A DNA stretch of 59,732 bases from a virus (lineage: Duplodnaviria > Caudoviricetes). The stretch spans positions 1-59,732 of IMG/VR virus record IMGVR_UViG_3300032893_000049; one strand, given 5' to 3'. The position numbers were made by a program, and so were the translations under genes. Each line of letters begins with the position of its first letter. Positions within the stretch are counted from its first letter, which is position 1. Positions 13,998 to 39,460 of the stretch are shown here, in pieces. The notes below the pieces were generated by a model. The model did no database searches and was not told the origin of the DNA. It saw only the letters and a list, made by a program, of their open reading frames with translations.

Positions 13998-14312
13998 ATG
14001 GCTCTCCCGTCCTGGCAGGAGATCGCCGAGACGCTGCGCGAGCGGGTGCGGGCCGGCGACTACCCCGTGGGGTCCCTGATCCCGTCCACGACGGGCCTGG
14101 CGGCGGAGTTCGGGGTGACGCGGGGGCCAGCTCGGGCCGCAGTGGAAGCACTCAAGCGGGAGGGCGTTCTGGAGGGGGAGCCGGGCCGGGGGGTCCGGGT
14201 GGCGGCGGTGCCGTCGGCGCGGTTGCGGCCGGTGCGGGATGTGCTGGCCGAGCACGAGGCGCAACTGCGGGAGATCCGGGAGCGGCTCGACCGGCTAGAG
14301 AACCAGGGTTGA
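13998..14312 (+). CDS. GntR-family regulator (KorSA/TraR-like)
   Basis: WQEIAETLRERVRAGDYPVGSLIPS…LAAEFGV…ALKREG…GRG; divergent from the tra operon. Confidence 0.9.
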   Translation: MALPSWQEIAETLRERVRAGDYPVGSLIPSTTGLAAEFGVTRGPARAAVEALKREGVLEGEPGRGVRVAAVPSARLRPVRDVLAEHEAQLREIRERLDRLENQG

Positions 14313-14347
14313 CAACCTAACCCGAGACAGGGTTTAATGGTCACATG
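14309..14347 (+). promoter_or_regulatory. Shared promoter motif copy 1 (leaderless)
   Basis: TTGACA-N18-TTTAAT-GGTCAC-ATG. Confidence 0.75.
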
Positions 14348-14638
14348 ACGACGCCGGTGATGCCCGCACCCGCAGCCCACGCACCCATCTCGATGCTCAA
14401 CCGCACGGGCAGCGGCATCCGCACCATCATCATCTGCTCCTGCGGATGGACCCCCAGCAAGGCACCCGAGCGGGGCTCCACCATGCACAACGCCCACGAC
14501 GCCCACCGGCGCGCCCACGGCCTGCGCAAGGACACCTGCCCCGCCGACGTCTACGGCGAGGGCCCCGCCAAGGGCCTCACCTGGGACCAGTGGTACGCCG
14601 CCAACCCCGGCCTTGACCCGTTCGGCGTCCGGGACTGA
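14345..14638 (+). CDS. Hypothetical protein (CxCGW…H…H)
   Basis: ATG directly at promoter motif. Confidence 0.65.
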   Translation: MTTPVMPAPAAHAPISMLNRTGSGIRTIIICSCGWTPSKAPERGSTMHNAHDAHRRAHGLRKDTCPADVYGEGPAKGLTWDQWYAANPGLDPFGVRD

Positions 14639-14712
14639 ACCAACCACAACCGTCGCATGGCCGCGGCATGATGGCCGTCAGGTGATCAACCGACTACAAG
14701 GAGCCCCCCGCC

Positions 14713-14994
14713 ATGACCACCACGACCCAGATCACAGATCTCACCGATCTGCTCGATCTCAGCGACACCTTCGGCATCTACGCCGACGACTACGACACCG
14801 ACGCGGTCCGCGACGACTTCATCGCCGCTCTCCAGGCGGCCGCCCAGCGGATTGCGCCAAGCGTCACTGTGCATCGCAACGGGATGGTCTTCGCCGCCGT
14901 CGAAGACGCCGCCTCCGCCCGCGAGATCGCGTGGACGACCCTCGCCGAGGGCATCGACATCACCCCGATGCTCGCCGCACACGAGAAGGGCTGA
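14713..14994 (+). CDS. Acidic hypothetical protein
   Basis: AAGGAG RBS; Asp-rich. Confidence 0.65.
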   Translation: MTTTTQITDLTDLLDLSDTFGIYADDYDTDAVRDDFIAALQAAAQRIAPSVTVHRNGMVFAAVEDAASAREIAWTTLAEGIDITPMLAAHEKG

Positions 14995-15000
14995 CCGACC

Positions 15001-15297
15001 GTGAGCATGACACCACTCGGCCCCAGAGGACCCCTCCGGATGATCGCCGTCGCCGAACTGTTCACCGAGCGTGTGAGTGTGAGCGTCGGCCCTGAGCGCA
15101 TCGAGGGCATGGAGGACGTCTACCGACCCGACGAGGCCATCGCCGCAACCGCCACAACCATCAACGGTGGACTCGCGCAGGCCAAGGAATGGCTTGAGGG
15201 GCAGGGCTGGAGCGTTGGGTCGTGGCACAAGATGGCATCAACCGACTACGACAAGTTTGCCCACCTCAAGCGCTGGGCGGTCGTCAACAAGCGTTGA
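15001..15297 (+). CDS. Hypothetical protein
   Basis: ORF in operon, codon bias. Confidence 0.55.
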   Translation: MSMTPLGPRGPLRMIAVAELFTERVSVSVGPERIEGMEDVYRPDEAIAATATTINGGLAQAKEWLEGQGWSVGSWHKMASTDYDKFAHLKRWAVVNKR

Positions 15298-15430
15298 CGA
15301 TCACCCCCGCCAACCCGCCCGGAGCCCGGCTGGTCCGGGTCGGTTGGACGTCGTCCCGACGGGTGCGCCCCGACGAGCACGCCTCCCTGATGATCGGGTC
15401 AAACCAGACAACCCCAAGGAGACGCCGACC

Positions 15431-15829
15431 ATGATCCTGACCATGCGGAACCCGATCGACATGACACGCCCGGCGGCCAGCCTCGTCGCAGCCCTCGACG
15501 ACGCCACCCGGCTGATGGTGGAGCAAGCGATCTACCGGGCCGTCGGCGACCTCTACGTCCTGGTGCGGGACAACTGCATCGGCTCCGGCGAGGTCGTCCG
15601 CGTCGACTGGGACGTACTGACCCTCGTGGGGCCCGTCGAGCAGAACGGCGCGCTGGCCGGCCAGCCGGGTCACATCGTCGTCAACGTCCTCCCCGCCGGG
15701 GCCGACCCCAAGCCCGAGTTCGAGCGGATCGCCCGGGACATCTGGGGCCCCTACTTGGAGGAGCTGCGCCGCGTCCGTCGGCCGGTGACAACGCCGCAAG
15801 TCACGGGGACCCGTCACCCCCTGCGGTGA
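15431..15829 (+). CDS. Hypothetical protein
   Basis: AAGGAG RBS; ends within a hairpin. Confidence 0.6.
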   Translation: MILTMRNPIDMTRPAASLVAALDDATRLMVEQAIYRAVGDLYVLVRDNCIGSGEVVRVDWDVLTLVGPVEQNGALAGQPGHIVVNVLPAGADPKPEFERIARDIWGPYLEELRRVRRPVTTPQVTGTRHPLR

Positions 15830-15838
15830 CGGGTCCCT
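15806..15838 (+). terminator. Hairpin terminator
   Basis: gggacccgtcacc-ccctgc-ggtgacgggtccc. Confidence 0.6.
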
Positions 15839-15854
15839 CTCTGTTCCGGCCGAT

Positions 15855-15892
15855 TGCCGGTTGTTGACGGATGGTGTCGTCAACAACCGGCA
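15855..15892. promoter_or_regulatory. 15-bp inverted repeat upstream of the deazaguanine operon
   Basis: tgccggttgttgacg-N8-cgtcaacaaccggca; left arm recurs at 25934 and 33882. Confidence 0.55.
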
Positions 15893-15906
15893 GTTGACGT
15901 GGCACT

Positions 15907-16560
15907 ATGTGGCTCGTGGCCGTCGTCCCCCTGCTGCGCGTCGAACACGGGTACCCCGTCGAGGGCCTCGTCGAGTGGCCCGGCAACCCCCGCAAGCACG
16001 ACGAGAACGTGCTGGACGAGTCGGTCGCCGACCACGGCCAGTTCCGCAACGTGCTGGCCCGGGAACTGCCCGACGGCCGCCTCCAGCTACTGGCCGGGCA
16101 CGGCACCCGCGAGGCCCTGATCCGCGCCGGCATCACCCACATTGACGTCGAGGTCCGCGCCGTCCCCGACGACGACCGGGCCCGCCGCATCGTCCTGATC
16201 GAGAACCGGTCCGGGGATCGCGCCCGCTACGACCACTCCAAGCTGCTCGACCTGCTCGACGAGGCCCGCGCCACCCCACACGGCCTGGACGGCACCGGCT
16301 GGGACGCCCAGGGGTACGACGACCTGCTGGCCGCCCACCAGGCCCCGGACCTGGACGACCTGGCCGGGCAGGTCGGCGACCCCACCGACGAGGACCGGAT
16401 GGTCGTCATCCGGGTCCTGGTCGACCCGTCCACGCGCGACCAGTTCAACCGGCTCATGTCCCTGGTCGAGGGGGCGGCCAGCGACGCCGAGAAGTTCTCC
16501 GGGGTGCTGGCCTGGGCCGCCGTGGGTGCCCGCGCAGACGGGCTGGACACGATGCCGTGA
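15907..16560 (+). CDS. ParB/Srx N-terminal domain protein
   Basis: PGNPRKH, SVADHGQ, LLAGHGT, ENR motifs; typical first gene of phage DNA-modification clusters. Confidence 0.85.
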   Translation: MWLVAVVPLLRVEHGYPVEGLVEWPGNPRKHDENVLDESVADHGQFRNVLARELPDGRLQLLAGHGTREALIRAGITHIDVEVRAVPDDDRARRIVLIENRSGDRARYDHSKLLDLLDEARATPHGLDGTGWDAQGYDDLLAAHQAPDLDDLAGQVGDPTDEDRMVVIRVLVDPSTRDQFNRLMSLVEGAASDAEKFSGVLAWAAVGARADGLDTMP

Positions 16561-17504
16561 CCGTCGAGCTCCGCTACCCCGTCAACGCCCTCACCTCGTT
16601 CCGCTACTTCAAGGACGTCGACCTGACCCCGTTGACAGCCGGCGGGCTGCGGTTGATCGCCGACTCCGGAGCGTTCTCCGCCGCCTCCCAGGGCACCCCG
16701 ATCGACCTGGACGAGTTCGCCGACTGGGCGACCCGGGTCCGGCACCTGGTGTCGTGGGTGGCATCCCTGGACGTCATCGGCGACGCCGACCGCACCTGGA
16801 CCAACTACCAGCGGTTGCGGTCCCTGCACGGCCTGGACGTCATCCCGACCGTCCACTACGGCGCCGACCCGTCCCTGCTGGACCGGTACGCCGGCGACGG
16901 CGTCGACTTCGTCGGCCTGGGCGGCATGGTCGGCCGCAAGTCCGAACCGCAGCGGCTGCTGCGCTGGACCCTGCACATGTTCCGGTACGCCAGGGACCAC
17001 CACCCGGGGATGCGGTTCCACGGCTGGGGGGTCACCCACCCCCAGCTGCTGGCGGCACTGCCCTGGTTCTCCGTCGACTCCTCCGGCGCCGGCTCCGCCT
17101 ACCGGTACGGGCGGGCGAGCCTGTTCAACCCCGACACCGCCCAACTGGTCACCGCCTCCATGAACGGCCGGGACATGCACCGCCACTCCGACCTGCTGCG
17201 CCGCTGGTACGGGGTCACCCCCGCGGAGGTGTCGACGTCCAGCAGCACCAACCGGTCCCTGCACGTGCGGATGGCGGCCCGGTCCCTGCAACTGCGGGAG
17301 GACTGGCTGCGGGCCCGCCACCGGGTCACCCCACCCACCTACGGCCTGACCGACGCACCCAGCAGCGGCCCGCACGTGCACATCTCCGACACCACCAGCA
17401 TCAACTACGTCCCGATCATGCGGCCCGCCGACGACGGCCCGCACATCCACTACGTGGACGCCGCCCCCGGGCACCTGGCTCGACTCACCGAGAGGACCCC
17501 ATGA
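16557..17504 (+). CDS. dpdA: DpdA-like (TGT-fold) 7-deazaguanine DNA transglycosylase
   Basis: IADSGAFS, LDVIGD, IPTVH, VGLGG, FHGWGVT, FSVDSS; context with que genes. Confidence 0.8.
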   Translation: MTVELRYPVNALTSFRYFKDVDLTPLTAGGLRLIADSGAFSAASQGTPIDLDEFADWATRVRHLVSWVASLDVIGDADRTWTNYQRLRSLHGLDVIPTVHYGADPSLLDRYAGDGVDFVGLGGMVGRKSEPQRLLRWTLHMFRYARDHHPGMRFHGWGVTHPQLLAALPWFSVDSSGAGSAYRYGRASLFNPDTAQLVTASMNGRDMHRHSDLLRRWYGVTPAEVSTSSSTNRSLHVRMAARSLQLREDWLRARHRVTPPTYGLTDAPSSGPHVHISDTTSINYVPIMRPADDGPHIHYVDAAPGHLARLTERTP

Positions 17505-18202
17505 CAAGCACCCTCGTCCTGCTGTCTGGTGGGCTGGACTCCACCACCCTCGCCGCCCACCTGCTCGACGCCGGCGACCACCTGGAGACCATCTCCATCC
17601 ACTACGGGCAGCGCCACGTCCGCGAGCTGCAGGCCGCCGCCGCCGTCGCCGCCCACCTCGGGCTCCGCCACGACGTCGTCGACCTGTCCGTGCTGCGCCA
17701 GCACCTCACCGGATCTGCCCTCACCGACGACGTGCCCGTCCCCCACGGCCACTACGCCGAGGACACCATGCGCGCCACCGTCGTCCCCAACCGCAACGCG
17801 ATCATGCTGTCGGTCGCGGTCGGCATCGCCGTGGCCCGCCACCTGAACCGGGTCGCCACCGCCGTGCACGCCGGTGACCACTTCGTGTACCCCGACTGCC
17901 GGCCCGCCTTCATCGACGCCATCGACGACGCGGCCCGCCTGGGCACCCAGGGGTTCGGCGACGTCATGGTGACCGCCCCGTTCGTCAACTGGACGAAAGC
18001 GGACATCGCCCGCCGCGCCCACCAGTTGGGCGCCCCCGCGCACCTGTCCTGGTCCTGCTACGAGGGCAACGACCAACACTGCGGCCGGTGCGGGACCTGT
18101 GTGGAGCGGGCCTCCGCGTTCTCACAAGCCGGGGTGCCCGACCCCACGGTCTACGCCGACCGTCAGTTCTGGACCGAGATGATCGAGCGGCACGGAGTCT
18201 GA
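17501..18202 (+). CDS. queC: 7-cyano-7-deazaguanine synthase
   Basis: LLSGGLDS, YGQRH, VPNRN, YPDCR, SWSCY…HCGRCGTC. Confidence 0.97.
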   Translation: MTSTLVLLSGGLDSTTLAAHLLDAGDHLETISIHYGQRHVRELQAAAAVAAHLGLRHDVVDLSVLRQHLTGSALTDDVPVPHGHYAEDTMRATVVPNRNAIMLSVAVGIAVARHLNRVATAVHAGDHFVYPDCRPAFIDAIDDAARLGTQGFGDVMVTAPFVNWTKADIARRAHQLGAPAHLSWSCYEGNDQHCGRCGTCVERASAFSQAGVPDPTVYADRQFWTEMIERHGV

Positions 18203-18263
18203 CGGTGGGAGTCCACGAAACCTGCTACGTCAAGGTGCACCGTCGTCTCCGTCAGGTCGCCCC

Positions 18264-18684
18264 ATGAACGGACTCGTCGTCACCCCCTGCGGCCGCCGCA
18301 AGGCCCCCGCGCCCACACAGGCAGCGGACCTGTACCGGGGCAGTTACTTCCGGGTCTGCCTGCGGTATGCCCGGCACCTGCAGCCGGACAACCGGATCCG
18401 GATCCTGTCCGCCCTGCACGGCCTTGTCTACCTTGACCAAGTGCTGGCCCCGTACAACGTGATGTTCGGGGGGCCCGGCACCATCCGGGTCGCCCAGATC
18501 CGGGAGCAGGCCGCACAGCAGGGCCTCCTGGACGCCAACCCCGTCATCATCCTTGGCGGCGTTGAGTACGCCTCCCGGGCCCTGCCGGTGTGGCCGCACG
18601 CCACCACCCCCCCTGATCACGGTCGAGGGCCGCATGGGCGACCAGCAGAACGCGATGCGTTGCTGGATGGGTGAGGTGTCGTGA
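18264..18684 (+). CDS. DUF6884-like protein, apparently frameshifted at a C7 run (18607-18613)
   Basis: VVTPCGRRK…AADLYRGSYF…ILSALHGL; as written stops at 18674, with one fewer C it reads PLITVEGRMGDQ… to a stop at 18684 coupled to next GTG. Confidence 0.7.
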
Positions 18685-18848
18685 CCGGGATCGTCGCCGC
18701 CCTCCTGCTGGGCGCCACTGTCGGGGCCGTGTTCGCGGTCGCCCGCTTGCCGGTCCCGGCCCCGAGCACCTGGGCGGGAGTCGCCGGGATCGTTGGCCTG
18801 CTCACGGGATGGCTGGCCGTCAACGCCCTGCTGGGAAGGAACCACTGA
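18681..18848 (+). CDS. XapX/DUF1427-like small membrane protein
   Basis: LLLGATVGAVFAVARLPVPAPSTWAGVAGIVG; coupled at both ends; not listed in the ORF track. Confidence 0.75.
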   Translation: MTGIVAALLLGATVGAVFAVARLPVPAPSTWAGVAGIVGLLTGWLAVNALLGRNH

Positions 18849-19213
18849 TGTACGAGATCACCAAGGACTTCGCGTTCTCCGCGGCGCACGTCCTGCACGG
18901 GCTGCGCCCCAACCACCCGTGCGGCCGGACCCACGGCCACAACTACACCGTGCGGGTCGCCTTGTCCGCCCACGACCTCAACACGGTCGGGTTCGTCGTC
19001 GACTACGGCGACCTCAAGCCGTTCGGGCTGTGGCTGGACACCAACCTCGACCACCAGCTCCTCAACAAGGTCCTGCCGATGCAGCCGTCGGCGGAGAACA
19101 TGGCCCAGTACCTGCACGCCGTCCTGCACGACGTCGTGCCCGTGCCCGACGGGGTGACCGTCGCGGTGGCCGTGTCCGAGACCCCGAAGACGTGGGCCTG
19201 GTACCGGCCGTGA
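18848..19213 (+). CDS. queD: 6-carboxytetrahydropterin synthase
   Basis: FSAAH, CGRTHGHNY, LDH, SAEN, SETP. Confidence 0.95.
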   Translation: MYEITKDFAFSAAHVLHGLRPNHPCGRTHGHNYTVRVALSAHDLNTVGFVVDYGDLKPFGLWLDTNLDHQLLNKVLPMQPSAENMAQYLHAVLHDVVPVPDGVTVAVAVSETPKTWAWYRP

Positions 19214-19926
19214 CCCTCGCCCATGACCGGCTCCTGGTCGCGGAGGTGTTCGGGCCCACCGTGCAGGGGGAGGGCCGGCGCCTCGGGCAGCGGTGCTCGT
19301 TCGTCCGGCTCGGCGCCTGCAACCTCGCCTGCACCTGGTGCGACACCCCGTACACGTGGGACCGGACCCGCTTCAACCTCACCCGGGAGCTGACCACCCG
19401 GTCCGCGTCCGACATCGCCGCCGAGGTGGCCGGGCACGGCACGAAGCTCACCGTCATCACCGGCGGGGAGCCGCTGCTGCAGCAGCACCGCATCGGGTGG
19501 CGGGCCCTGGTGGAGGACCTGCTCAGCTGCTACCGGTCGGTCGAGGTGGAGACCAACGGCACCCAGGTCCCCGCCATGAACCGGGCCGGCCTCACCTACA
19601 ACGTCAGCCCCAAGCTGGCCCACTCCGGGGACCCCGAGGACGCCCGCATCGTCCCGGCCGCGCTCCACGAGTTCGGGCACCTGGCCCGGGCCAACGTCGC
19701 CGACTGGAAGTTCGTCGTCGCCGACCGCGGCGACCTGGCCGAGGTCAACGCCCTCGTACAGCGGTTCAACGTGCCGGCGTCCCGGGTGTGGGTGATGCCG
19801 GAGGGCACCGACCAGGCCACCATCACGGGCCGCGCCGGCGACCTGGCCGACGTGGTGATCGGGCAGGGGTACAACCTCACCACCCGGCTGCACGTGCTGC
19901 TGTGGGGACAGGAGCGGAAGCGGTGA
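19210..19926 (+). CDS. queE: 7-carboxy-7-deazaguanine synthase (radical SAM)
   Basis: EVFGPTVQGEG, CNLACTWCD, TGGEP, ETNG, VSPK, RLH. Confidence 0.95.
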   Translation: MTLAHDRLLVAEVFGPTVQGEGRRLGQRCSFVRLGACNLACTWCDTPYTWDRTRFNLTRELTTRSASDIAAEVAGHGTKLTVITGGEPLLQQHRIGWRALVEDLLSCYRSVEVETNGTQVPAMNRAGLTYNVSPKLAHSGDPEDARIVPAALHEFGHLARANVADWKFVVADRGDLAEVNALVQRFNVPASRVWVMPEGTDQATITGRAGDLADVVIGQGYNLTTRLHVLLWGQERKR

Positions 19927-20510
19927 CCACCAGGGACCTCACGGGCACCGAGGCGGAGGAGCTGTTCGCGGTCGGCATGCGGGCCCTGCTGGGGCAGTTG
20001 GGCGTGGACCCCGACGGGCCGGACGTCGCCGACACCCCCGCCCGATGGGTGCGGGCGCTGCGAGAGATGACCGCCGGCTACGGGGAGGACCCGGCCGCGA
20101 TCCTGTCCCGCACGTTCGAGATGCCCCACGCCGACGAAATGATCGTGGTGACTGGGGTGCCGTTCACCAGCGTCTGCGCCCACCACCTGCTGCCGTTCTG
20201 GGGGACTGGCACCGTCGCCTACATCCCCGCCGAGGGCGCCCCCGTCGTGGGCCTGTCGAAGCTGGCCCGGGTCCTGGACGTCTACGCCAAGCGGCTGCAG
20301 TCCCAGGAGCAGATCACGGTCCAGGTCACCACCGCCCTGGACACCCACCTGCAGACCAGGGGCGCCGCGTGTGTCCTGCGCGCCCAGCACGGGTGCATGG
20401 CTCACCGCGGTGTCCGCAAGCCGGGCGCGGAGATGGTCACCTCCAGCCTGACCGGCGCGTTCCGGTCCGACCCGTCCGCCCGGGCGGAGTTCCTGGCCCT
20501 GGCACGGTAG
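19923..20510 (+). CDS. folE: GTP cyclohydrolase I
   Basis: DTPAR, SVCAHHLLPF, GLSKLAR, RLQSQE, HGCM-x-x-RG. Confidence 0.97.
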   Translation: MTTRDLTGTEAEELFAVGMRALLGQLGVDPDGPDVADTPARWVRALREMTAGYGEDPAAILSRTFEMPHADEMIVVTGVPFTSVCAHHLLPFWGTGTVAYIPAEGAPVVGLSKLARVLDVYAKRLQSQEQITVQVTTALDTHLQTRGAACVLRAQHGCMAHRGVRKPGAEMVTSSLTGAFRSDPSARAEFLALAR

Positions 20511-20525
20511 GTCGCCTCAGGCGTA

Positions 20526-20567
20526 GGCAAGGGCCCGCATCCGGGGAAGAGGATGCGGGCCCTTGCC
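20526..20567. terminator. Terminator hairpin after folE
   Basis: ggcaagggcccgcatcc…ggatgcgggcccttgcc. Confidence 0.75.
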
Positions 20568-20660
20568 GTTGGCCCCCGCCAGGGCCAGATCAGTGGGTTG
20601 TCAGTCGTGGGTCGGGAGGGGTGCGGCCCGCCCCGGCCGGGGCGGGCCGCTACGGGTGGG

Positions 20661-21263
20661 TCAGGGCTTGGCGGTCAGCAGGGTGTAGACCGCGTGCCGC
20701 TTGCCGGACACCGCCTTGAGGGGGGCCGCGGAGCCGGGCAGGGTGGGCCGCCACTTGCGGGCGCTGGTGTCCCACCGCAGGTCCCCGACGTGGACCCCGT
20801 CCTCGACCCGGGTGACCCGCAGGACCAGCGGGTCGCCGGTCTGCTCGGCCTTGACGGCGACCGCCTGGCCGTTCGGGTGCGCCTCAACCTCGAAGGGCTT
20901 GACGGCGGTCAGGGCCACGTTGGGGCGGGCCTCGCGGGACGCCTTGGCCGGGGCCTCGGTGTCGGGAACCTCGCCCGGCTCGGCGGCGGCTGCCATCTCC
21001 TGCTCCTGCTCGGCAGCGTCGAAGGGGGCCGGGACGTCGCTGGCGTCGCTGCCGCCCAGCCCGTCGGGGCCGGCGATGTCCACGATCTGCGGCTCGGCAG
21101 TGAACACGATCTTGCCGTCCTCGTCGTTGGTGACGGTGACGCTGGCGGTGGGGTCGGCCTCAAGGATGGTGGTGCGGGCGAACCGGATGGCGTCGCGGCC
21201 ACGGGTGCGGGTGAAGGTCTTGGTGTCGCCGTTGGTGTAGGTGACGGTGGTGGTGAACGACAT
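20661..21263 (-). CDS. Hypothetical protein
   Basis: AAGGAG RBS; downstream of shared promoter. Confidence 0.7.
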   Translation of the reverse strand: MSFTTTVTYTNGDTKTFTRTRGRDAIRFARTTILEADPTASVTVTNDEDGKIVFTAEPQIVDIAGPDGLGGSDASDVPAPFDAAEQEQEMAAAAEPGEVPDTEAPAKASREARPNVALTAVKPFEVEAHPNGQAVAVKAEQTGDPLVLRVTRVEDGVHVGDLRWDTSARKWRPTLPGSAAPLKAVSGKRHAVYTLLTAKP

Positions 21264-21301
21264 CGTGGTCTCCTTGGCGGGGGGACTTGGTACTTCCTGA
21301 C

Positions 21302-21337
21302 ATGACTATTAAACCCGATGCACGGGTAGTCTGTCAA
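21302..21337 (-). promoter_or_regulatory. Shared promoter motif copy 2
   Basis: TTGACA-N18-TTTAAT-AGTCAT. Confidence 0.75.
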
Positions 21338-21338
21338 G

Positions 21339-22483: not shown

Positions 22484-22791
22484 GACCACGCCGCCAGGTC
22501 GTGCTTCTCCACCAGCGCCTGCGCGGCACGGGCGAGGGCCGATTCGCCCTTGGCGGCCTGCTTGACCAACCGGACCAGGTCCTCCCACATCTCGTCGCGG
22601 TTCAGGTTGAGGTCGCCGTGCAGGATCACCGACGACGGGGTCACGTCGGCGTGCTCGATGTCGACAGGCCATTCCAGGCCGTCCACCTCCACCCACACGG
22701 GGGTCGAGGGGTCCGCCTCGCTCAGGGTCCGTTGGAGGTCCCCGGCCAGGGCGTGCGCGCCGGCCGACACGGGCCGGAAGGACCCGCTCAC
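22480..22791 (-). CDS. Hypothetical protein
   Basis: Coupled at both ends. Confidence 0.6.
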   Translation of the reverse strand: MSGSFRPVSAGAHALAGDLQRTLSEADPSTPVWVEVDGLEWPVDIEHADVTPSSVILHGDLNLNRDEMWEDLVRLVKQAAKGESALARAAQALVEKHDLAAWS

Positions 22792-23710: not shown

Positions 23711-23713
23711 CCG

Positions 23714-23995: not shown

Positions 23996-23998
23996 AGT

Positions 23999-32719: not shown

Positions 32720-33219
32720 TGGGCCCCGAGCACCGGGTCGCCGCGGTCGCCGCGTGGCTGGGGGTCGCCCCGCACCTGGGTGTCACCCCGGGCCAGCTGG
32801 TGGTCGGGACGCTGTTCGCCGGTGCGGCCGGGCACGGCCGGTTGTCCCCGGATGCCGACCAGGAGGGGTGGCTGGCGAAGCTGATCCCGGGCGGGCACCG
32901 GGGCATCACCCACTGGTGGCCGGTCACCCTGGTCATGTTCCTGGCCGGCACCCGCCTGGGCACCTACGGGTGGCAGGTTGAGGCGGTCGCGGTGGCGTGG
33001 GCGTCGCACCTGGGCGGGGACGTGGTGTTCGGGGAGATCCCTGTCCTGCCCCGCCGCGGCGGCCGGTGGGTGCGGTTCGGTGTCGGCCTGGACACCGGCG
33101 GCTGGTCCGAACGGTGGGTGGCCCGCCCCCTGCTCCTGCTGACCGTCCTGGCGCTCGCCCTGGTCGACGCCGGGGTGATCCCGTCCGCCTGGTGGTTGCA
33201 CCCCCACCCTTCCATCTGA
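32716..33219 (+). CDS. Membrane metal-dependent hydrolase (YdjM-like)
   Basis: MMGPEH, PDAD, HRGITH, SHLGGD. Confidence 0.8.
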   Translation: MMGPEHRVAAVAAWLGVAPHLGVTPGQLVVGTLFAGAAGHGRLSPDADQEGWLAKLIPGGHRGITHWWPVTLVMFLAGTRLGTYGWQVEAVAVAWASHLGGDVVFGEIPVLPRRGGRWVRFGVGLDTGGWSERWVARPLLLLTVLALALVDAGVIPSAWWLHPHPSI

Positions 33220-33269
33220 AAGGATGACCGCATATGCTGGTTAGTAGTCCAATCGTGGAAGGCAGTGAC

Positions 33270-33788
33270 GTGGCGCGAGGCAAGGTCCCCGAACTGGTCA
33301 GCCTCAGGGAGGCCGCCCAGATGTGGGGTGTCCCCTACAGCTCGATGGTCGCCCTGCCGTCCCGCTACCCGCCCGGGCACAGGCGCGCCTTCCCCGCCTG
33401 GACGGGGAGCCTGAACGACCAGCGGGAGAAGCTGTACCCAGGCCCCGAGGTGAAGGCGTGGCTGGACGGCCGCCCGGGCAGGCAGGGCCGCCCCCAGATC
33501 AATCCCCCCGACTACCTGTCCGAGGGCGCCTGGACGACCCTGGTCCGCATCGCCGACCACGGCGCCCACCAGCAGCGCCCGGACCGGTGGCGCGGCAACC
33601 ACGACATCGTCACCGACGGCGGCGCCACCCTGGACATGCGGGTCGTGGGCCCGCTGGTCGCTGAGGGTCTGGTCCGGGCCGTCGGGAAGAGGGGCGGGAT
33701 CCGCTACGTGGTCACCGCGGACGGGCGGCGCCTACTCGACGACCCGGCGAACCAGGCGTGGCTGACCAAGGCCCGCGCGACCGCCTGA
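33270..33788 (+). CDS. Putative DNA-binding protein (N-terminal HTH, C-terminal winged helix)
   Basis: LVSLREAAQMWGV…FP…RPG; LVAEGLVR…YVVTADGRR. Confidence 0.6.
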   Translation: MARGKVPELVSLREAAQMWGVPYSSMVALPSRYPPGHRRAFPAWTGSLNDQREKLYPGPEVKAWLDGRPGRQGRPQINPPDYLSEGAWTTLVRIADHGAHQQRPDRWRGNHDIVTDGGATLDMRVVGPLVAEGLVRAVGKRGGIRYVVTADGRRLLDDPANQAWLTKARATA

Positions 33789-33816
33789 ACTGTCGGAGCG
33801 GTCCCGTACGCTCCCC

Positions 33817-33854
33817 GTGAAGCCCCCGCACAGCCTCGGTTGCGGGGGCTTCAC
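33817..33854 (+). terminator. Terminator hairpin
   Basis: gtgaagcccccgca…tgcgggggcttcac. Confidence 0.7.
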
Positions 33855-33931
33855 CACACCCTGACACCACGGGGGGAGTCCTGCCGGTTGTTGCCGCCAT
33901 AAACCGGCAGGTCAGGCGCTACATTCGGACC

Positions 33932-34111
33932 GTGCCCACCGACTCGTCCCTGCCCCCGATCGAGCCGCCCGCCGACCTCCGCACCGGCGCCCTGATCCAC
34001 CGGCAGATGTTCATCGCCTACACCGACGCCGGGTTCACCGAGGCCCAAGCGATGGACTTCATCAAGACGATGATCGTGGCGTCGTGGCGCCCGGGCACCG
34101 GTACGGCGTGA
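33932..34111 (+). CDS. Small conserved actinophage-type protein
   Basis: QMFIAYTDAGFTEAQAM; coupled to next gene. Confidence 0.65.
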   Translation: MPTDSSLPPIEPPADLRTGALIHRQMFIAYTDAGFTEAQAMDFIKTMIVASWRPGTGTA

Positions 34112-34914
34112 CCACCCCGGCCGCCCCCTGTGCGAGCGGCTGCACCCTGCGCGACCGCCACACCACACCCACCCCAGACAAGCACCCCGACGACTGCCCC
34201 GGCTGCCAGCCCCGCCCCACCGTGCCCGGCCTGGCCGTCTGCTGGCGCTGCTACTACCGGCTCGTGGACGCCCTCACCCGCGCCCCCGACCTCGTCGCGC
34301 ACATCCGCGACCACGTCACCCCCGGCTCGGCCGTCCGGCAGGAAGGCACCCGCGGGAAACGCCCCGCACCACCCGCCCCCCTCAACGTGACCGCCGTCGC
34401 CGACGCCGACGACCTGCACGCCCTGCTCGCCTCCTGGGCGGGCGTCATCCTCACCGACCACCCCGACCACCTGACCGGCCCGTCCTGGTCGGGGACGCGG
34501 CTCCTGCCGGCCCGCCGCCGGCCCAACACCCCCGTCTACCTGGACCCCGAACCGGCAGGCCTCACCACGACCGGCGACTGGCACGCCACCGCCGCAGTCA
34601 CCCGCTGGATCTACACCCACCACGAGTGGGCGCTCACCCAGGAGTGGGCCGGCGACCTCACCACCGAGGTCACCACCCTGGTTGCCACCCTCCGCGGCCG
34701 CTACCCCGTCGAGGAACGCCCCACCTACACCGGCGCCCCCTGCCCGAACTGCGGCCGCCCGTCCCTGATCCGGTACGCCCCCACCTGCTGGCAGGGCCCC
34801 GTCACGATCACCTGCGCCGACTGCGGCACCACCGTCCCCGAGAAGCTCTACGGCGCGTACGTGCGGGTCCTGCTCGCCGAACGCCGCGCCCAGGCCCGAG
34901 CGGCCACCCCATGA
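34108..34914 (+). CDS. Zn-finger putative late-gene regulator
   Basis: CWRC, PAPLN, CPNC…CADC; typical position before tRNA/terminase in actinophages. Confidence 0.6.
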   Translation: MTTPAAPCASGCTLRDRHTTPTPDKHPDDCPGCQPRPTVPGLAVCWRCYYRLVDALTRAPDLVAHIRDHVTPGSAVRQEGTRGKRPAPPAPLNVTAVADADDLHALLASWAGVILTDHPDHLTGPSWSGTRLLPARRRPNTPVYLDPEPAGLTTTGDWHATAAVTRWIYTHHEWALTQEWAGDLTTEVTTLVATLRGRYPVEERPTYTGAPCPNCGRPSLIRYAPTCWQGPVTITCADCGTTVPEKLYGAYVRVLLAERRAQARAATP

Positions 34915-35207
34915 TCTGGTACACGATCGAGCAGGCCGCCGAACGCGTCGGCCGACACCCGTCCACGATCCGCGCCTGGATCGCCTCCGGCCGGCTGCCC
35001 GTCATTCACCACGACCTCGTGCCCGGCGTCCGCTTCGTCGCCGAGGACGCGCTCCTAGCCGCCTTCGCGGCCGCCCGCCAGGCCCACGGCGGCCCGACAC
35101 GCTTCGGGACCAACAGTGCAGGTCAGCACGGTAACGCGTGCTACTCTCCCGATCGTCGGAGCAGTGCACCCACCGAACCCGAGACCGGTGCCCCCGACCC
35201 CCCATGA
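34911..35207 (+). CDS. HTH DNA-binding protein (MerR/xis-like)
   Basis: YTIEQAAERVGRHPSTIRAWIASGRL. Confidence 0.8.
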   Translation: MIWYTIEQAAERVGRHPSTIRAWIASGRLPVIHHDLVPGVRFVAEDALLAAFAAARQAHGGPTRFGTNSAGQHGNACYSPDRRSSAPTEPETGAPDPP

Positions 35208-35434
35208 TCACCATCACCCGGACCCACCGCGCCCGCCTGTCCTGGCCCTGGCTCCGCTGGTGCCTTCTCGACCGGCGCTGCCGCTCCCACAGTTGCCCGC
35301 CCGACCTCTACATCCACCCTCTCGGCCTGATCGTCCGGTTCAGGGACGACACCGACCCGTGGGGCATCAGCGGCGACCGGGCCACCGTCGTCACGATGCG
35401 CCCCGTCACCGAACCCGACGAGGAGGCGTGGTGA
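35204..35434 (+). CDS. Hypothetical protein
   Basis: ATGA coupling. Confidence 0.5.
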   Translation: MITITRTHRARLSWPWLRWCLLDRRCRSHSCPPDLYIHPLGLIVRFRDDTDPWGISGDRATVVTMRPVTEPDEEAW

Positions 35435-35568
35435 CCCGCGGGAAGCTCCTCGGCCGGGCCGCGGCCCGCACCCAGCGCGACCGGTGCCTCCGCCGTACCC
35501 GGGACTGCTGCGATCACCGACGTCAGCGGCGACGCGAGAACCGCCAGTGGCAGCGGGAGCCCTGGTGA
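35431..35568 (+). CDS. Small basic peptide
   Basis: GGAGG RBS; LLGR…CC…RE-x-R-x-W-x-RE, paralogous to next gene. Confidence 0.45.
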   Translation: MTRGKLLGRAAARTQRDRCLRRTRDCCDHRRQRRRENRQWQREPW

Positions 35569-35819
35569 GTCACGCCCGGATGCTCGGCCGGCTCGGCTGG
35601 CACGGCCAATGCGCCTGCTGCAACGGCCCCGCCTGCGACAAGCGCGCCGAGGACCGGGCCTGGCGACGCGAGTGGGACCGCGAACAGGACGAGCAGTACC
35701 GGGAGACGTGGAAGGCCCACATGTGGGAGTCCCGACACCTCCCCCCAGACGCCCCGCTAGCTCCGTCGGGTTGGGCATCGGCCAGCTCTCAAGGCTGGCT
35801 ACGGCGTGGCGGACCCTGA
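35565..35819 (+). CDS. Small Cys-rich protein
   Basis: MLGR…CACC…KRAEDRAWRRE. Confidence 0.5.
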   Translation: MSHARMLGRLGWHGQCACCNGPACDKRAEDRAWRREWDREQDEQYRETWKAHMWESRHLPPDAPLAPSGWASASSQGWLRRGGP

Positions 35820-35874
35820 AAACGGAGCACCAACGCGTAGTCTCGTCAACCGGCAGCCGCCGGGCAGGGTGTGG

Positions 35875-36351
35875 TCAGGACCCGACGGCCAGGCACGTCG
35901 AGCACCGGTACCACGACCGGCGACCTCTACCGCGCCGCTCACCCATCCGGATAGGGTCCGGCCCCGGGTGAGCGCCCACCACGGGGCAGGGACAGCCGCG
36001 GCGGGCACCGATGACCAGTCCCCGAGGGGCCGCCGGCGAGCTGGAGCCACCCGGCAGAGAAGGCGCCGACCCGGCGGCCCCTGCGCCACGGCTTCCAAGC
36101 TCAGGTGGGAGAGCGCCCCGCTGAAAACGGGGAGGGTCGCGGGAGGCCACCTCGTCCGGCACCCACACCAGCTCGTACCCGCGCCGGGCCAGCTCCCGCC
36201 ACACCTGCCGCGCGTCCCGCCCCAGCACACCCCACCGCCGCGCGTACGGCGCCACCTCGGACACCCGCCCGTCAGCCACGACCAGCCCCACCGTCGCCGA
36301 CGGCGTCCGGCACCAGATCAACCCCTCAGGGGACCCCACAGCCACCCCCAA
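35875..36351 (-). CDS. Hypothetical protein; only the first ~65 aa look genuine
   Basis: GGAGG RBS; GLVVADGRVSEVAPYARRW; remainder reads antisense through the tRNA-Phe fragment. Confidence 0.4.
   Translation of the reverse strand: MGVAVGSPEGLIWCRTPSATVGLVVADGRVSEVAPYARRWGVLGRDARQVWRELARRGYELVWVPDEVASRDPPRFQRGALPPELGSRGAGAAGSAPSLPGGSSSPAAPRGLVIGARRGCPCPVVGAHPGPDPIRMGERRGRGRRSWYRCSTCLAVGS
36090..36143 (+). pseudogene. 5' fragment of tRNA-Phe(GAA), truncated at the T loop
   Basis: GCTC-AGGTGGGA-GAGC D arm, CCCCG-CTGAAAA-CGGGG anticodon arm, GCGGG; no TTCG and no complement to GGCTTCC. Confidence 0.6.
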
Positions 36352-36468
36352 CCTCCGGCGCCCGGTTGCCTAGGACCGGGGCGCCGGCCAGCTGGGTGAC
36401 TTTCCGACCCAGGGCCCAAGACCAATGCCCCTGTGCACGAACCGGGTCACCACCGAGGCTACCCGCAG

Positions 36469-36543
36469 CTGGCCCAGCGGGACTCGAACCCGCCACCCCC
36501 GGTTCCGTAGACCGGTGCGCTGTCCAACTACGCCCATGGGCCA
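36469..36543 (-). tRNA. tRNA-Arg(ACG)
   Basis: TGGCCCA/TGGGCCA, CCGGT-CTACGGA-ACCGG, GCGGG-TTCGAGT-CCCGC. Confidence 0.85.
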
Positions 36544-36602
36544 AGGCCAGCCCCCGCAGCCACCCGCACGGCGGTACCACCACACGGACCACGAGAACCG
36601 GG

Positions 36603-36674
36603 TGGACCCACGGGGACTCGAACCCCGAACCCCCTGCTTGCAAGGCAGGCGCTCTCCCATTGAGCTACAGGCCC
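36603..36674 (-). tRNA. tRNA-Ala(TGC)
   Basis: G3:U70 pair, CCTGC-CTTGCAA-GCAGG, A73. Confidence 0.92.
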
Positions 36675-36678
36675 CAAG

Positions 36679-36752
36679 GGTGGGCGACGGGACTCGAACC
36701 CGCAGCCTCCGCTGCCACAGAGCGACGCTCCACCCACCGAGCTCCACCCACC
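36679..36752 (-). tRNA. tRNA-His(GTG)
   Basis: G-1:C73, TCGCT-CTGTGGC-AGCGG, GCGGG-TTCGAGT-CCCGT. Confidence 0.85.
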
Positions 36753-36857
36753 ACAAGCCAGCCTGCCACCCGCCACCGACAGCCCGCACCGCCATAACCC
36801 GCCCCCCGCGGGCACGACCCCCCATCTCATGACGGTCTCAGGCTCGGGGAGGGTGTC

Positions 36858-37520
36858 ATGGCGGTGGCGATCTGCGGCGCGAAGAAGCGGCAGGGTGACG
36901 GCACCTGCGGCCAGCCGGCCGGGTGGGGCACCGACCACCTCGGGATCGGGTCGTGCAAGCTGCACGGCGGGAACACCCCAGGTCAGCGGCAGAAGGCCCG
37001 GGAGGAGCAGACCCGGCAGTTGGCCCGCACGCTCGGGGTGCCGGTGGAGGGCCTGGACCCGAAGGAGTCGATCCTGCGGGAGATCGCCTGGTCGGCGGGG
37101 CACGTCGCCTGGTACCGGGCGCAGGTGCAGGCGCTGGACCCGGACGCCCTGGTCCGGGGGGTCCGGCGGGTCGAGGTGACGACCTACTCGGGGTTCCAGG
37201 TGGGGGAGGAGCGCACCCAGGAGGCCGGCCCGGACGTGCATCTGCTGCTGCGGCTCTACAACGAGGAACGGGACCGGCACACGAAGCTGTGCGTGGACGC
37301 GATCCGGTTGGGGATCGAGGAGCGCCGGGTGCAGCTGCAGTCCGAGCAGGGCGCGCGGCTGGTGGAGGGCCTGGGCTGGCTGGTGGCGCTGACGGCGTCC
37401 AAGCTGTCTCTGCAGGCGCAGGCGCTGGACGTGATGCGGGCCGCGGTGGGGGAGCTGCTGCGGGTGCTGGCGTCGGGTGCGCCGTTCCCGAGAGTGCCGG
37501 CCGCGCTCACCGCGGGCTGA
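36858..37520 (+). CDS. Probable terminase small subunit (HGG Zn-motif type)
   Basis: CGAKKR…C…AGWGTDH…CKLHGG, LYNEERDR…LGIEER. Confidence 0.65.
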   Translation: MAVAICGAKKRQGDGTCGQPAGWGTDHLGIGSCKLHGGNTPGQRQKAREEQTRQLARTLGVPVEGLDPKESILREIAWSAGHVAWYRAQVQALDPDALVRGVRRVEVTTYSGFQVGEERTQEAGPDVHLLLRLYNEERDRHTKLCVDAIRLGIEERRVQLQSEQGARLVEGLGWLVALTASKLSLQAQALDVMRAAVGELLRVLASGAPFPRVPAALTAG

Positions 37521-37569
37521 GTACCACCTGCGGAAACGTGACACTCGAACCGGTCGGTAACTTGCCGGG

Positions 37570-38097
37570 TCAGGCCTCCCGGGCGGTCACGCTGACGGTG
37601 GTGCCCTGCCAGGGCTGGCCCGGGAATCCCGCCGGGTCCTCTCGGTGCAACCTGGCGCGCTGCTGCGCACTGGCGCGGTCGCGGTCCTCACCGAACCCGC
37701 CATTGCCGCAGGAGCACACCCAGACGGTGTGGAACTCACGCCGGTAGCGCCCGCACGACCCGTTGCTCTTGGTGATGTACCGCTCCCCGTTGTCTACCTC
37801 GAATGTGCGGGTCCGGTGGCCGCCGGCGCGCCGGGCGACCTTGGCGTTGTACCCGTGCTCGGTGAGCACCATCGCCAGGGACGGCACGTCGGAGTCGAGC
37901 AGCACCCAGAACTTGCCGCTGAGGTGGGTCCGGGCGGGCCGCACCCGGTCCGGGGCGAACCCGGCGGCGCGAGCGGCCTTGACCGCCTCAGCCTTGGTCC
38001 GCCACCTCATCGACTCGTGGTGGACCACGAGCCAGCCCCGCTCGTCGGTGCGGATCGGGAAGCGCGCACCAGCGTGGTGCACCTGCGGCTCGGTCAC
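37570..38097 (-). CDS. Hypothetical protein
   Basis: AGGAGG RBS; C-terminal CSCG…H. Confidence 0.65.
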   Translation of the reverse strand: MTEPQVHHAGARFPIRTDERGWLVVHHESMRWRTKAEAVKAARAAGFAPDRVRPARTHLSGKFWVLLDSDVPSLAMVLTEHGYNAKVARRAGGHRTRTFEVDNGERYITKSNGSCGRYRREFHTVWVCSCGNGGFGEDRDRASAQQRARLHREDPAGFPGQPWQGTTVSVTAREA

Positions 38098-38112
38098 GGT
38101 CGGCTCCTCCTG

Positions 38113-38487
38113 TCAGCGGTAGTTGCGCCGGTACGCGGTGACGCCGCAGCGGCCGCAGATCTCCCAGTCGGGGGTCGGCTCGTCCACCCAGTCGTGGGCG
38201 CCGCCGGTCTCGTGGCACGGCTCGTCGGCCGGGTCCACCTCGTCGGCCTGGTCCTCGACCAGGGTGACGACGCGGTCGAGGCGGGCCCAGCGGCCGTCGG
38301 GGAAGACGACCCGCGGGTACCCCTGGTGGAACCCGTCGATGGTGCCGACCATCTCCTGGCCCTCCCAGGTGGTGAAGATCGCCTTGCGGCCGATCCACCA
38401 CGGGCGGGAGTCCTCGCCGGGCATGAACTGTCCGGTGATGGGGTGCTTGCCGTCGGCCCGGTAGGTGACGGTGCGGGTGGCCTGCAT
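38113..38487 (-). CDS. Hypothetical protein
   Basis: GAGGAG RBS; C…H…CxxC tail. Confidence 0.65.
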   Translation of the reverse strand: MQATRTVTYRADGKHPITGQFMPGEDSRPWWIGRKAIFTTWEGQEMVGTIDGFHQGYPRVVFPDGRWARLDRVVTLVEDQADEVDPADEPCHETGGAHDWVDEPTPDWEICGRCGVTAYRRNYR

Positions 38488-38496
38488 GTCTGCTCC

Positions 38497-38865
38497 TCAG
38501 GGGTTGAGGCCGTGGCGCCGCAGGGCGGCGAGGTCGATCTGGGCGTACCTGGCGTAGGCCTTGAGCTCGCCGAGGGCGCCCCGGTAGCCGGTGGCGCGGT
38601 CCCGGCCGGGCTGGCGGGAGGTGCCGCCGAGGCGCGGGTCGTAGTTGCCGCGGTAGATGGTGCCCCACAGGACCCGCCCGGACTTGGCGCCGACCTCGAT
38701 GACGCCGAACCCGGCGAACTCGCCGGTGCCGTTGAGGGCGATGCGGTACTTGCCGCGGTAGACGTCCTGGAGGACGGGCTGCAGGCCGAGCTTGGCGGCG
38801 AGGTTGATCAGCCGCTGGGCGGAGGTGGACGGGGCCGGCGCCGGGCGGGTGGTCTGGGTGGCCAT
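38497..38865 (-). CDS. Hypothetical protein
   Basis: AGGAGG RBS. Confidence 0.65.
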   Translation of the reverse strand: MATQTTRPAPAPSTSAQRLINLAAKLGLQPVLQDVYRGKYRIALNGTGEFAGFGVIEVGAKSGRVLWGTIYRGNYDPRLGGTSRQPGRDRATGYRGALGELKAYARYAQIDLAALRRHGLNP

Positions 38866-38999
38866 GTCGTCCTCCTGTGGTTGTGGTGGGTGCTCGGTCC
38901 GGCCCCCGGCTACTACTCCGGTGTGCTCCGCTCCCCGTCACGCCTGCGGCGTCGGCGGTGGCTGTCCGGCTGCTTCGCCGGGGGCCGTTCCTTGCTGAC

Positions 39000-39034
39000 A
39001 GGACTATTAAACCGTACATGCGGCTGCCAGTCAA
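39000..39034 (-). promoter_or_regulatory. Shared promoter motif copy 6
   Basis: TTGACT-N17-TTTAAT-AGTCCT. Confidence 0.75.
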
Positions 39035-39058
39035 GTCCTGACGAAATAGGGATCCGGC

Positions 39059-39096
39059 TTGACTGTAGACCTGATTTACGGTTTACTAGTCACATG
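39059..39096 (+). promoter_or_regulatory. Shared promoter motif copy 7 (leaderless)
   Basis: TTGACT-N17-TTTACT-AGTCAC-ATG. Confidence 0.75.
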
Positions 39097-39426
39097 ATGA
39101 CGCCGGACATCACCTGCACCCGGTGCGGGCGGCCCCTCACCAGCCCGGCCAGCGTCAAGGCCAGGATGGGCGCCACCTGCGCGAGGCGGGTCCGTCAGGC
39201 CCGCGAGGTCGCCGCCACGTTCAAGGCCCGGCAGGTGGAGAAGGCGCTGGAGGTGTTGGACCTGCACGCGATCGTGCTGGCCCGCAGGGGGCGCCGGGTG
39301 TTCCGGGTGGTGTCGTCGGACGGGTCGCGCCGCTACCTGACGACGGTGCGGGCGTGCACGTGCCCGGCTGGGGCGAAGGGGCGTCCGTGTTACCACCGGG
39401 CCGCCGCCGTCCTCCTCACTGCTTGA
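39094..39426 (+). CDS. DUF6011-like Zn finger plus SWIM Zn finger protein
   Basis: CTRCGRPLT…S…G-x-x-C; CTCPAG…CYH. Confidence 0.75.
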   Translation: MMTPDITCTRCGRPLTSPASVKARMGATCARRVRQAREVAATFKARQVEKALEVLDLHAIVLARRGRRVFRVVSSDGSRRYLTTVRACTCPAGAKGRPCYHRAAAVLLTA

Positions 39427-39460
39427 CAGATGACCGTATCTACGGTCTAATAGTCACATG
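39423..39460 (+). promoter_or_regulatory. Shared promoter motif copy 8 (leaderless)
   Basis: TTGACA-N17-TCTAAT-AGTCAC-ATG. Confidence 0.75.

Follow-up and report, generated by a model that had tools for sequence, protein, structure and literature searches.

Repeated, phage-specific promoter and operator sequences are already well known, and the conserved inverted repeats of phiC31, which are dispersed repressor sites, are one example of them. Two further examples are the stoperators of Cluster A mycobacteriophages, which are the dispersed repressor sites of temperate actinophages (PMC9283540), and the PeSL cassettes of T4-type phages (PMC2839356). In this work we describe a repeated sequence in the genome of an uncultivated actinophage, represented by the IMG/VR virus record IMGVR_UViG_3300032893_000049, whose 59,732 bp (~72% GC) were analysed in full and are called the window below. 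The motif TTGACW-N17/18-T(T/C)TA(A/C)T-RGTCAC is present in eight copies, five forward and three reverse (Table 1), and these sites very probably act as genuine promoters and belong to a single co-regulated class. Three features are new: the sequence itself, the loss in every copy of the adenine at position -11 from a promoter that is ideal in other respects, and a discriminator that is conserved.

Stoperators offer an instructive comparison. They share with the present sites a short, phage-specific repeated sequence, a fixed orientation to transcription and an overlap with early promoters, and the 14-bp block conserved in the window is asymmetric, like a stoperator. Stoperators differ in that the majority of them are found at a distance from promoters and halt elongation, whereas all eight copies described here comprise a full -35/spacer/-10 arrangement. 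This arrangement also separates them from the promoters of T7-like polymerases, which are contiguous sequences of ~23 bp without a -35 element.

The initial annotation of this DNA, which was made from the letters alone, had described an element-wide set of eight promoters, and all eight were recovered at the places it gave. A weight matrix scores the eight sites at 28.1-34.1 bits and the next best places in the window at 8.6 (33238) and 8.5 (24768); because the matrix was built from these sites it is circular for them, and it is the gap to the other places that is informative. The strict pattern of the initial annotation finds four sites (14309, 24846, 39059 and 39423, all on the forward strand) against none in 100 shuffles, and the 12-base core GGTYTAMTRGTC finds all eight against none for a reversed-pattern control. 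When up to three mismatches are allowed, the 14-base core GGTTTAMTRGTCAC gives nine matches, comprising the eight sites (0-2 mismatches) and position 15001 (3 mismatches); at this looseness the mean number of matches in shuffles is 4.2. Alignment of the sites on their core yields the consensus cTTGACw-(N5)-(A/G)CCG-N6-CGG-TTTAMT-RGTCAC, followed in five of them by ATGAYGA. The -35 hexamer is TTGACW in six sites, while those of P3 and P4 agree with the consensus at three and five of the six positions, respectively; on both strands of the whole window TTGACW occurs only nine times, six of these within the sites. Spacers between the hexamers measure 17 bp in six sites and 18 bp in two, within the 16-18 bp of primary-sigma promoters.

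Table 1. Promoter-like sites of the repeated motif and other features of the window
Feature	Position	Strand	Description
P1	14309-14344	+	TTGACA-N18-TTTAAT-GGTCAC, ATG at 14345; GntR stop codon inside -35
P2	21302-21337	-	TTGACA-N18-TTTAAT-AGTCAT; leader of ~32 nt with AAGGAG, before gene 21263-20661
P3	24212-24246	-	TTGCTT-N17-TTTACT-GGTCAC, ATG at 24211; heads leftward unit 24211-21339
P4	24271-24305	+	TAGACA-N17-TTTAAT-AGTCAC, ATG at 24306; 60-aa protein with weak Zn-ribbon signal; no spacer dyad
P5	24846-24880	+	TTGACT-N17-TTTACT-AGTCAC; leadered (AAGGAG), before ArdC-N/M78 peptidase gene 24917-25864
P6	39000-39034	-	TTGACT-N17-TTTAAT-AGTCCT; well-folding leader of 134 nt before gene 38865-37570
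P7	39059-39093	+	TTGACT-N17-TTTACT-AGTCAC, ATG at 39094; 110-aa DUF6011 + SWIM Zn-finger protein
P8	39423-39457	+	TTGACA-N17-TCTAAT-AGTCAC, ATG at 39458; 306-aa Cys-rich Zn-ribbon protein
Doubtful decayed copy	33217-33254	+	before GTG at 33255; similarity to P8, chance-level score
XRE-family helix-turn-helix gene	6274-6522 (feature 6262-6522)	+	canonical leaderless TACCGT-N6-GTG; contrast to the motif class
Canonical leaderless unit	33920-35207	+	TACATT-N6-GTG (33932); genes for a 59-aa protein, a 276-aa protein with a Lar-like Zn ribbon and an HTH_17/MerR-like protein (34911-35207)
HTH_17 gene (divergent regulator pair by P1)	13657-13863	-	
Small GntR gene (divergent regulator pair by P1)	13947 or 13998 to 14312	+	
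WhiB-family gene	12859-13137	-	in leftward unit without motif

Each of the eight sites stands before a predicted gene and is oriented into it. P3/P4 and P6/P7 are back to back, as had been reported; the two pairs align without gaps and have the same distance of 95 bp between their +1 positions, although the 24 bp that separate the -35 boxes are unrelated. At both P1 and P8 the -35 hexamer contains the TGA with which the upstream gene ends. This placement bears on whether the sites might instead be bound by a DNA-handling protein, as partition, packaging, replication or modification targets. The phage does encode ParB-like, TraB-like and DpdA proteins, which act on specific DNA sites, but chance cannot explain a -35 hexamer at promoter spacing, co-orientation in 8/8 cases and a fixed offset to five start codons, and we regard this explanation as highly improbable.

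The position of the start codons helps to define how the sites are to be read. Five copies directly abut an ATG (14345, 24211 on the minus strand, 24306, 39094 and 39458), in agreement with the initial annotation, and in all five high coding-type GC content at third codon positions (GC3) opens at this ATG, with no Shine-Dalgarno sequence before it; P2, P5 and P6 are leadered, with AAGGAG or AGGAGG. The start of the P7 gene is pinned by a DUF6011 zinc-finger match that covers residues 7-34, and that of the P8 gene by eleven relatives whose N-termini are similar in length, the first invariant cysteine being residue 15. Since these domains would be lost from any later start and no Shine-Dalgarno sequence is present, the message would begin at the ATG, within 1-2 bases, which would in turn fix the -10 register as TTTAMT, ending 6 nt before the ATG. 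The same geometry of hexamer, N6 and start is seen for TACCGT (XRE gene at 6274) and TACATT (gene at 33932) before GTG. Registers shifted by 2 or 3 bases, which restore an A at position 2, were rejected, as they require a spacer of 19-21 bp and would place the start within coding frames that are already fixed.

Leaderless starts are nothing unusual among Actinobacteria. The Mycobacterium tuberculosis start-site map places TANNNT 7-12 bp upstream and reports that C is preferred at -1, a purine at +1 and T at +2 (PMC3898074); the present sites have this context as well. The leaderless M. tuberculosis promoters are also like those of the phage in having the hexamer 6 nt before the start and no Shine-Dalgarno sequence, and closely spaced divergent promoters occur among them as well (PMC3898074). 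They differ in combining TANNNT with no conserved -35 element (PMC3898074), whereas the phage sites have a consensus -35 and T or C at position 2 of the hexamer in 8/8 cases.

This second position is the most unusual feature of the class. It is T in seven sites, C in one and A in none, as the initial annotation had pointed out, while T is found at position 6 in all eight. In promoters of the primary sigma factor the corresponding A-11 is the most conserved contact, nearly invariant and flipped into a pocket of sigma. The consensus of their -10 element is T-12 A-11 T-10 A-9 A-8 T-7 (PMC3753650). In its other features the promoter is near ideal: the -35 matches the consensus, the hexamers are 17 or 18 bp apart, G is found at -14, and T at -12, -10 and -7. 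The canonical TANNNT is retained before two further leaderless genes of this phage. No instance of TTGACW-N16-18-TANNNT is found anywhere in the window, and a consensus scan that requires the A called no promoter in 1-14000, 12500-26000 or 33000-48000. If the starts map as predicted, the window holds eight natural, near-identical promoters with a perfect -35 and a -10 that lacks the supposedly indispensable adenine. They would then be a clean test bed for DNA melting by an actinobacterial polymerase or by a phage factor acting on it, and could provide high-GC hosts with small cassettes for leaderless expression.

The block from -18 to -1 (tacGGTTTAMTRGTCAC) is kept among the sites, while spacer positions between the conserved parts vary freely, which suggests that the block is under selection; its conservation seems to go beyond the known needs of sigma factors. 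Given that the spacer has diverged and yet none of the eight copies has gained an A, the T or C at position 2 appears to be maintained and not accidentally inherited. Upstream, a dyad of the CCG-N6-CGG type, described previously as usual in the spacer, spans -25 to -12 in six of the eight sites. It is exact in P3, P5, P6 and P8, and in P1 (CCC-N6-GGG) and P2 (CCCG-N5-CGGG) both arms have changed together; the spacer of P8 carries a perfect dyad with 7-bp arms, GACCGTA-TC-TACGGTC. The half-sites of the dyad are separated by one turn of the helix, a spacing that would suit a helix-turn-helix dimer; when bound there, such a protein would overlap the -10 box at its upstream edge. The sequence ACCG-N6-CGGT has nine matches in the window against a mean of 3.7 in shuffles, only one of them inside a site, and two further matches to CCG-N6-CGGTCTA fall inside coding sequence. 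Several other readings of the block were rejected. A GTCA-CA-TGAC palindrome shows no enrichment (6 matches against a shuffle mean of 4.6), a sigma-B/F-type -35 (GTTTAA) is followed by no -10, and sigma-54, reverse-strand and T7/SP6-like promoters were likewise dismissed, these last comparisons, including that with sigma-B/F, having been made by eye.

With regard to polymerase, start sites, timing and regulator, we infer tentatively, with a probability of roughly 0.45, that the sites are used by a primary-type host holoenzyme and that a phage protein on the -25 to -1 block is their common switch, most likely a repressor. A primary-type sigma holoenzyme would dock on the TTGACW -35 at 17/18-bp spacing and melt the AT-rich TTTAMT box, and transcription would start 7 nt after the box, on the A of the ATG at the five leaderless sites and on a G at the three leadered ones. 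The block from -18 to -1 together with the dyad from -25 to -12 would be the docking site of one phage-encoded DNA-binding protein, for which the genes at 6274 (XRE), 13657 (HTH_17), 13947 (GntR) and 34911 (HTH_17) are candidates. Once docked, this protein would cover the -10 box and thereby switch all eight units together, with repression, in the form of immunity or early shut-off, as the most likely sign of control. We favour this reading because the -35 is perfect, no sigma gene was found in the window, and the genes downstream, namely the DpdA/QueCDE/FolE set, the ArdC-like gene and the Zn-finger proteins, are apparently of early type.

Several observations weigh against this proposal. As A-11 is absent in 8/8 sites, the primary sigma factor should recognise them only poorly by itself; this is more in keeping with an activator or a different sigma factor than with a promoter under simple repression. 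P4 and P7 lack the dyad, and the conserved 14-bp block has no palindromic symmetry. Since the motif was found in one genome only and in no relative, comparison singles out none of the candidate regulators, and no RNA runs that contain the phage are listed. Finally, the fragmentary state of the record, described below, limits what is known of a temperate lifestyle and of the full set of regulators.

The missing adenine would be better accommodated by a factor-dependent (middle-type) class, silent with the unmodified host holoenzyme and read after a phage product has redirected the polymerase, although on balance we consider this somewhat unlikely. The redirecting product, which corresponds to the dedicated activator or sigma factor of the initial annotation, might be a divergent sigma-like protein, an appropriator or an activator of the MerR/HTH_17 type on the spacer dyad. 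That position 2 is A in 0/8 sites while two leaderless genes of the same phage keep TANNNT speaks for such a class, as does the conservation from -18 to -1 in excess of primary-sigma needs; the two TANNNT units could then be immediate-early, and one of them encodes an HTH_17/MerR-like protein. Promoters of the MerR type have a 19-20-bp spacer holding a dyad, and a register of the box shifted two bases downstream (TAMTRG) would give a spacer of 19/20 bp that encloses the dyad. The dyad is present in 6/8 sites, and the HTH_17/MerR-like proteins of the window are short and have no effector domain. Against the factor-dependent class, this later register puts the start inside the fixed coding frames of P7 and P8, the -35 is a perfect primary-sigma box, and since activators usually compensate for a poor -35 and not for a poor -10, compensation of the latter kind would be unusual; ArdC-like genes would also be expected among the first expressed.

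A dedicated activator or sigma factor, which the initial annotation had thought necessary, may be required. No sigma-factor domain was found among the predicted proteins or in a six-frame search of the window, where PF04542 (Sigma70_r2) had no match and PF04545 and PF08281 gave sub-threshold helix-turn-helix hits only, and no phage RNA polymerase family is represented among the 83 predicted proteins; the window being a fragment, this last absence is not final, and as it is cut inside dnaB a sigma gene could lie outside. The weak r4_2 hit corresponds to the 98-aa HTH_17/MerR-like gene at 34911-35207, which was missed by gene prediction, and the weak r4 hit lies inside the XRE gene; neither was accepted as a sigma factor. 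An unlikely but distinctive variant would be a new actinophage promoter class, in which a phage factor lets the polymerase use TTTAMT-RGTCAC instead of TANNNT and leaves the ordinary contact with the -35 unchanged. The factor would be either an unrecognisably divergent sigma-like protein or a protein that re-tunes the -10 reading head of the host sigma factor. We know of no actinophage with a switch in -10 specificity, and a literature search for a TTGACA/TTTAAT phage promoter class or for such a switch returned nothing relevant.

Five small DNA-binding proteins of the window are candidate regulators, encoded by the XRE gene (6274-6522), the two HTH_17 genes (13657-13863 and 34911-35207), the GntR gene (13947-14312) and the WhiB gene. 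The XRE protein is a candidate repressor and the WhiB protein (12859-13137) a candidate RNA-polymerase-associated factor; the GntR gene runs into P1, and the HTH_17 gene at 34911 belongs to the unit with the other canonical leaderless promoter. A helix-turn-helix gene at 33255-33788, preceded by a degenerate copy of the motif at ~33217-33254, had also been put forward as regulator. The copy aligns without gaps and shares GATGACCG with P8, with which it has eight bases of the spacer in common, but scores 8.6 bits, which is chance level, and it may be a decayed relic that we have left out of the count; the gene gives weak helix-turn-helix signals only (Pfam HTH_psq, E 0.096; atlas leads 0.78-0.83).

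The simplest account, that the sites are unregulated early promoters of the host primary holoenzyme whose likeness reflects shared descent of a spreading cassette, would explain the consensus -35, the optimal spacing and the G at -14 and T at -12 and -7 in 8/8 sites. Repeated promoter cassettes are known, and PeSL elements, in which near-identical strong promoters precede many small non-essential early genes, resemble the present case in this respect (PMC2839356). The likeness of the P2 and P5 leaders also suggests copying of whole modules. However, the spacer has been randomised while -18 to -1 was kept and no copy gained the strengthening A, so that the missing A counts against this account and in favour of a factor-dependent class. 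PeSL elements furthermore include a stem-loop terminator, canonical sigma-70 boxes and leadered messages, none of which holds for the phage sites: no conserved stem-loop terminator stands beside them, and the flanks of the eight sites are not conserved. We therefore consider unregulated promoters quite unlikely. The P2 leader (21264-21301, minus strand) resembles the P5 leader (24881-24916, plus strand) in GTxAGxAAGT...CCCCCCGCCAAGGAG, and whole promoter-leader modules seem, from this likeness, to have been copied. The P6 leader (38866-38999, minus strand) is predicted to form a long-range hairpin, GGCCCCCGG...CCGGGGGCC, of -62.3 kcal/mol (z = -3.6 against shuffles).

The genes behind the sites are, as described initially, small unknown, Zn-finger and ArdC-like genes, headed by what is one promoter-like, mostly leaderless class. 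The P1 unit (14345-20510) comprises small unknown genes followed by genes for a ParB-like protein, DpdA, QueC, DUF6884, QueD, QueE and FolE. P3 heads a leftward unit (24211-21339) and P2 would restart transcription before its last gene; P4 heads two 60-aa genes. The P5 unit begins with the ArdC-like gene and continues rightward to ~33788, including DUF4326, DUF4031, an RlaP-like nucleotidyltransferase and a phosphoesterase. Three leftward genes lie behind P6, while downstream of P7 and P8 are the genes of the SWIM/DUF6011 protein and the 306-aa Cys-rich protein, together with four small ones. Sequence folds indicate hairpins without a T-run at ~33817-33856 and 42049-42081, and a T-run-based scan called no terminators in 12500-26000 or 33000-48000. 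The motif is missing from the structural genes, which start past the hairpin at 42049-42081, as well as from the left arm (dnaB to XRE, plus the TraB/WhiB unit) and from the unit at 33932. All eight sites thus fall between 14.3 and 39.5 kb, and the class, initially called element-wide, seems to mark a central, early-type part of the genome and not the whole, as it is absent from the left arm and the structural genes.

The same kind of organisation recurs in relatives with other sequences. None of five capsid relatives (G001-G005) carries a copy of the motif. Two pattern scans of IMG/VR returned 22 and 2 single matches, on contigs of 29-62% GC, none of them related, and a search of metagenomes returned 36 loci, of which three exceed 60% GC with a single match each and no protein similarity to the window; the collections searched may omit the window's own records. 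Close protein relatives of the P8 gene, the ArdC-like gene and TraB were not found in IMG/VR, nor were close protein relatives found among cultured phages. Contigs nearly identical to the window in three wetland runs show no changes in the seven sites covered and are uninformative. Footprinting upstream of homologues of the P8 gene in 12 actinobacterial genomes revealed no shared motif. In G001, a 67-kb IMG/VR relative with a capsid 66% identical, a module of its own is present four times (50706, 55290, 56204 and 59560, all on the minus strand; L104-L107). It consists of an inverted repeat around TTGCGC, N17, then TACCTT, TACGGT or TACTGT, a GTCTAT-N6-ATAGAC palindrome at the predicted start and a leader with GGAG, and its box is thus the canonical TANNNT. 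A simple k-mer search gave no clear repeated cassette in G002-G005.

The P8 gene, the ArdC-like gene and the gene at 21339-21926 (195 aa) have homologues that cluster together in genomic elements of Kitasatospora, Streptomyces, Kibdelosporangium and a Micromonosporaceae metagenome-assembled genome. Two Kitasatospora loci, L146 (1700-14800) and L149 (1730-13700), carry another cassette of ~70 bases in 6 and 8 copies, which is composed of CATGGTAGTCTTTCT-CTTGTCAGGCCGGGTGGCTCCC followed by a ribosome site (also read as CATGGTAGTCTTTCT-CTTGTCAGGCCGGGTGGCTCCCGGAAGGCAATCGAACC) and contains TGGTAGTCT, readable as an extended canonical -10. One cassette heads each unit of small genes, including homologues of the P8 and P5 genes, and the genes so headed encode ArdC-like proteins, a PP2C phosphatase, DUF6409, DUF6573 and a Cys-rich Zn-ribbon protein. 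These elements are like the present phage in having one cassette per unit, 4-8 copies and homologous genes (Zn-ribbon, ArdC-like), but the G001 and Kitasatospora cassettes are unrelated in sequence, their boxes are canonical (TACCTT-type; TGGTAGTCT) and their messages are leadered. Gene sets of this kind thus appear to lie habitually behind element-specific repeated promoters, and this recurrence supports the reading of one programme independently of the window. Actinomycete mobile elements repeatedly put ArdC-like genes, Cys-rich Zn-ribbon genes and small unknown genes behind element-specific cassettes, which would mark those genes as a co-regulated early or establishment programme.

The 83 predicted proteins of the window include a large terminase, a portal with a NUDIX fusion, head proteins and a capsid protein, the last with thousands of relatives in metagenomes. 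Also encoded are a DnaB helicase, a WhiB protein, nine tRNAs, an ArdC-N/M78 protein and a 7-deazaguanine DNA-modification set (DpdA-like transglycosylase, QueC, QueD, QueE and FolE). From its WhiB and TraB genes the phage is predicted to have a host among the Actinomycetota, and single-gene homologues occur in Micromonospora, Kitasatospora, Streptomyces and Pseudonocardia. Although CheckV estimates its completeness at 100%, the record is a fragment. The dnaB frame (1-1130, GC3 0.96) is open at base 3, so that the gene is truncated, and its product matches just the last 32 positions of the DnaB N-terminal domain; at the right end (59626-59732) a new frame opens ~60 bases before the end. The cut dnaB gene, the lack of any repeat common to both window ends and the identical capsid protein on record on a 78,409-bp contig make the label of completeness doubtful, and statements on the whole element consequently hold for these 59.7 kb only.

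The suggestion of a post-transfer programme did not hold, as the window is a fragment of a phage genome and not of a conjugative element, even though it has a distant TraB and a small GntR gene. The TraB homologue (737 aa; 10123-12336, minus strand) matches NF041214 over its whole length (E 8.6e-76, below the curated cut-off) and, at ~26% identity to TraB of Streptomyces plasmids, is a distant homologue. Its gene lies near the small GntR gene and an HTH_17 gene (13657-14312), recalling the traR-traB kil-kor pair. The kil-kor system of Streptomyces conjugative plasmids combines a GntR-type TraR/KorA with TraB, which is like the GntR gene near TraB here, and TraR of pSVH1 binds 14-bp direct repeats before one operon (PMC4447253). 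Unlike TraR, the phage GntR protein has a DNA-binding domain and a short tail only (104-121 aa), and TraB is not behind a motif site. The arrangement of TraB and GntR could reflect a phage-plasmid hybrid or a borrowed translocase.

A stretch of ~1 kb beside the Arg/Ala/His tRNA genes (35435-36467) has no frame with coding-type GC3, and its Rfam matches are tRNAs only. Long inverted repeats at 15840-15885 (14-bp arms) and 33880-33915 have GCCGGTTGTTG in common; the first lies directly before the ParB-like gene at 15907 and the second directly before the canonical leaderless promoter of the gene at 33932, and both may be operators or parS-like sites. Between the HTH_17 and GntR genes (13860-13995) there are four repeats of (A/C)CCATG(T/C), as in GCACCATGTGCACCATGT, which may be the operator of this regulator pair.

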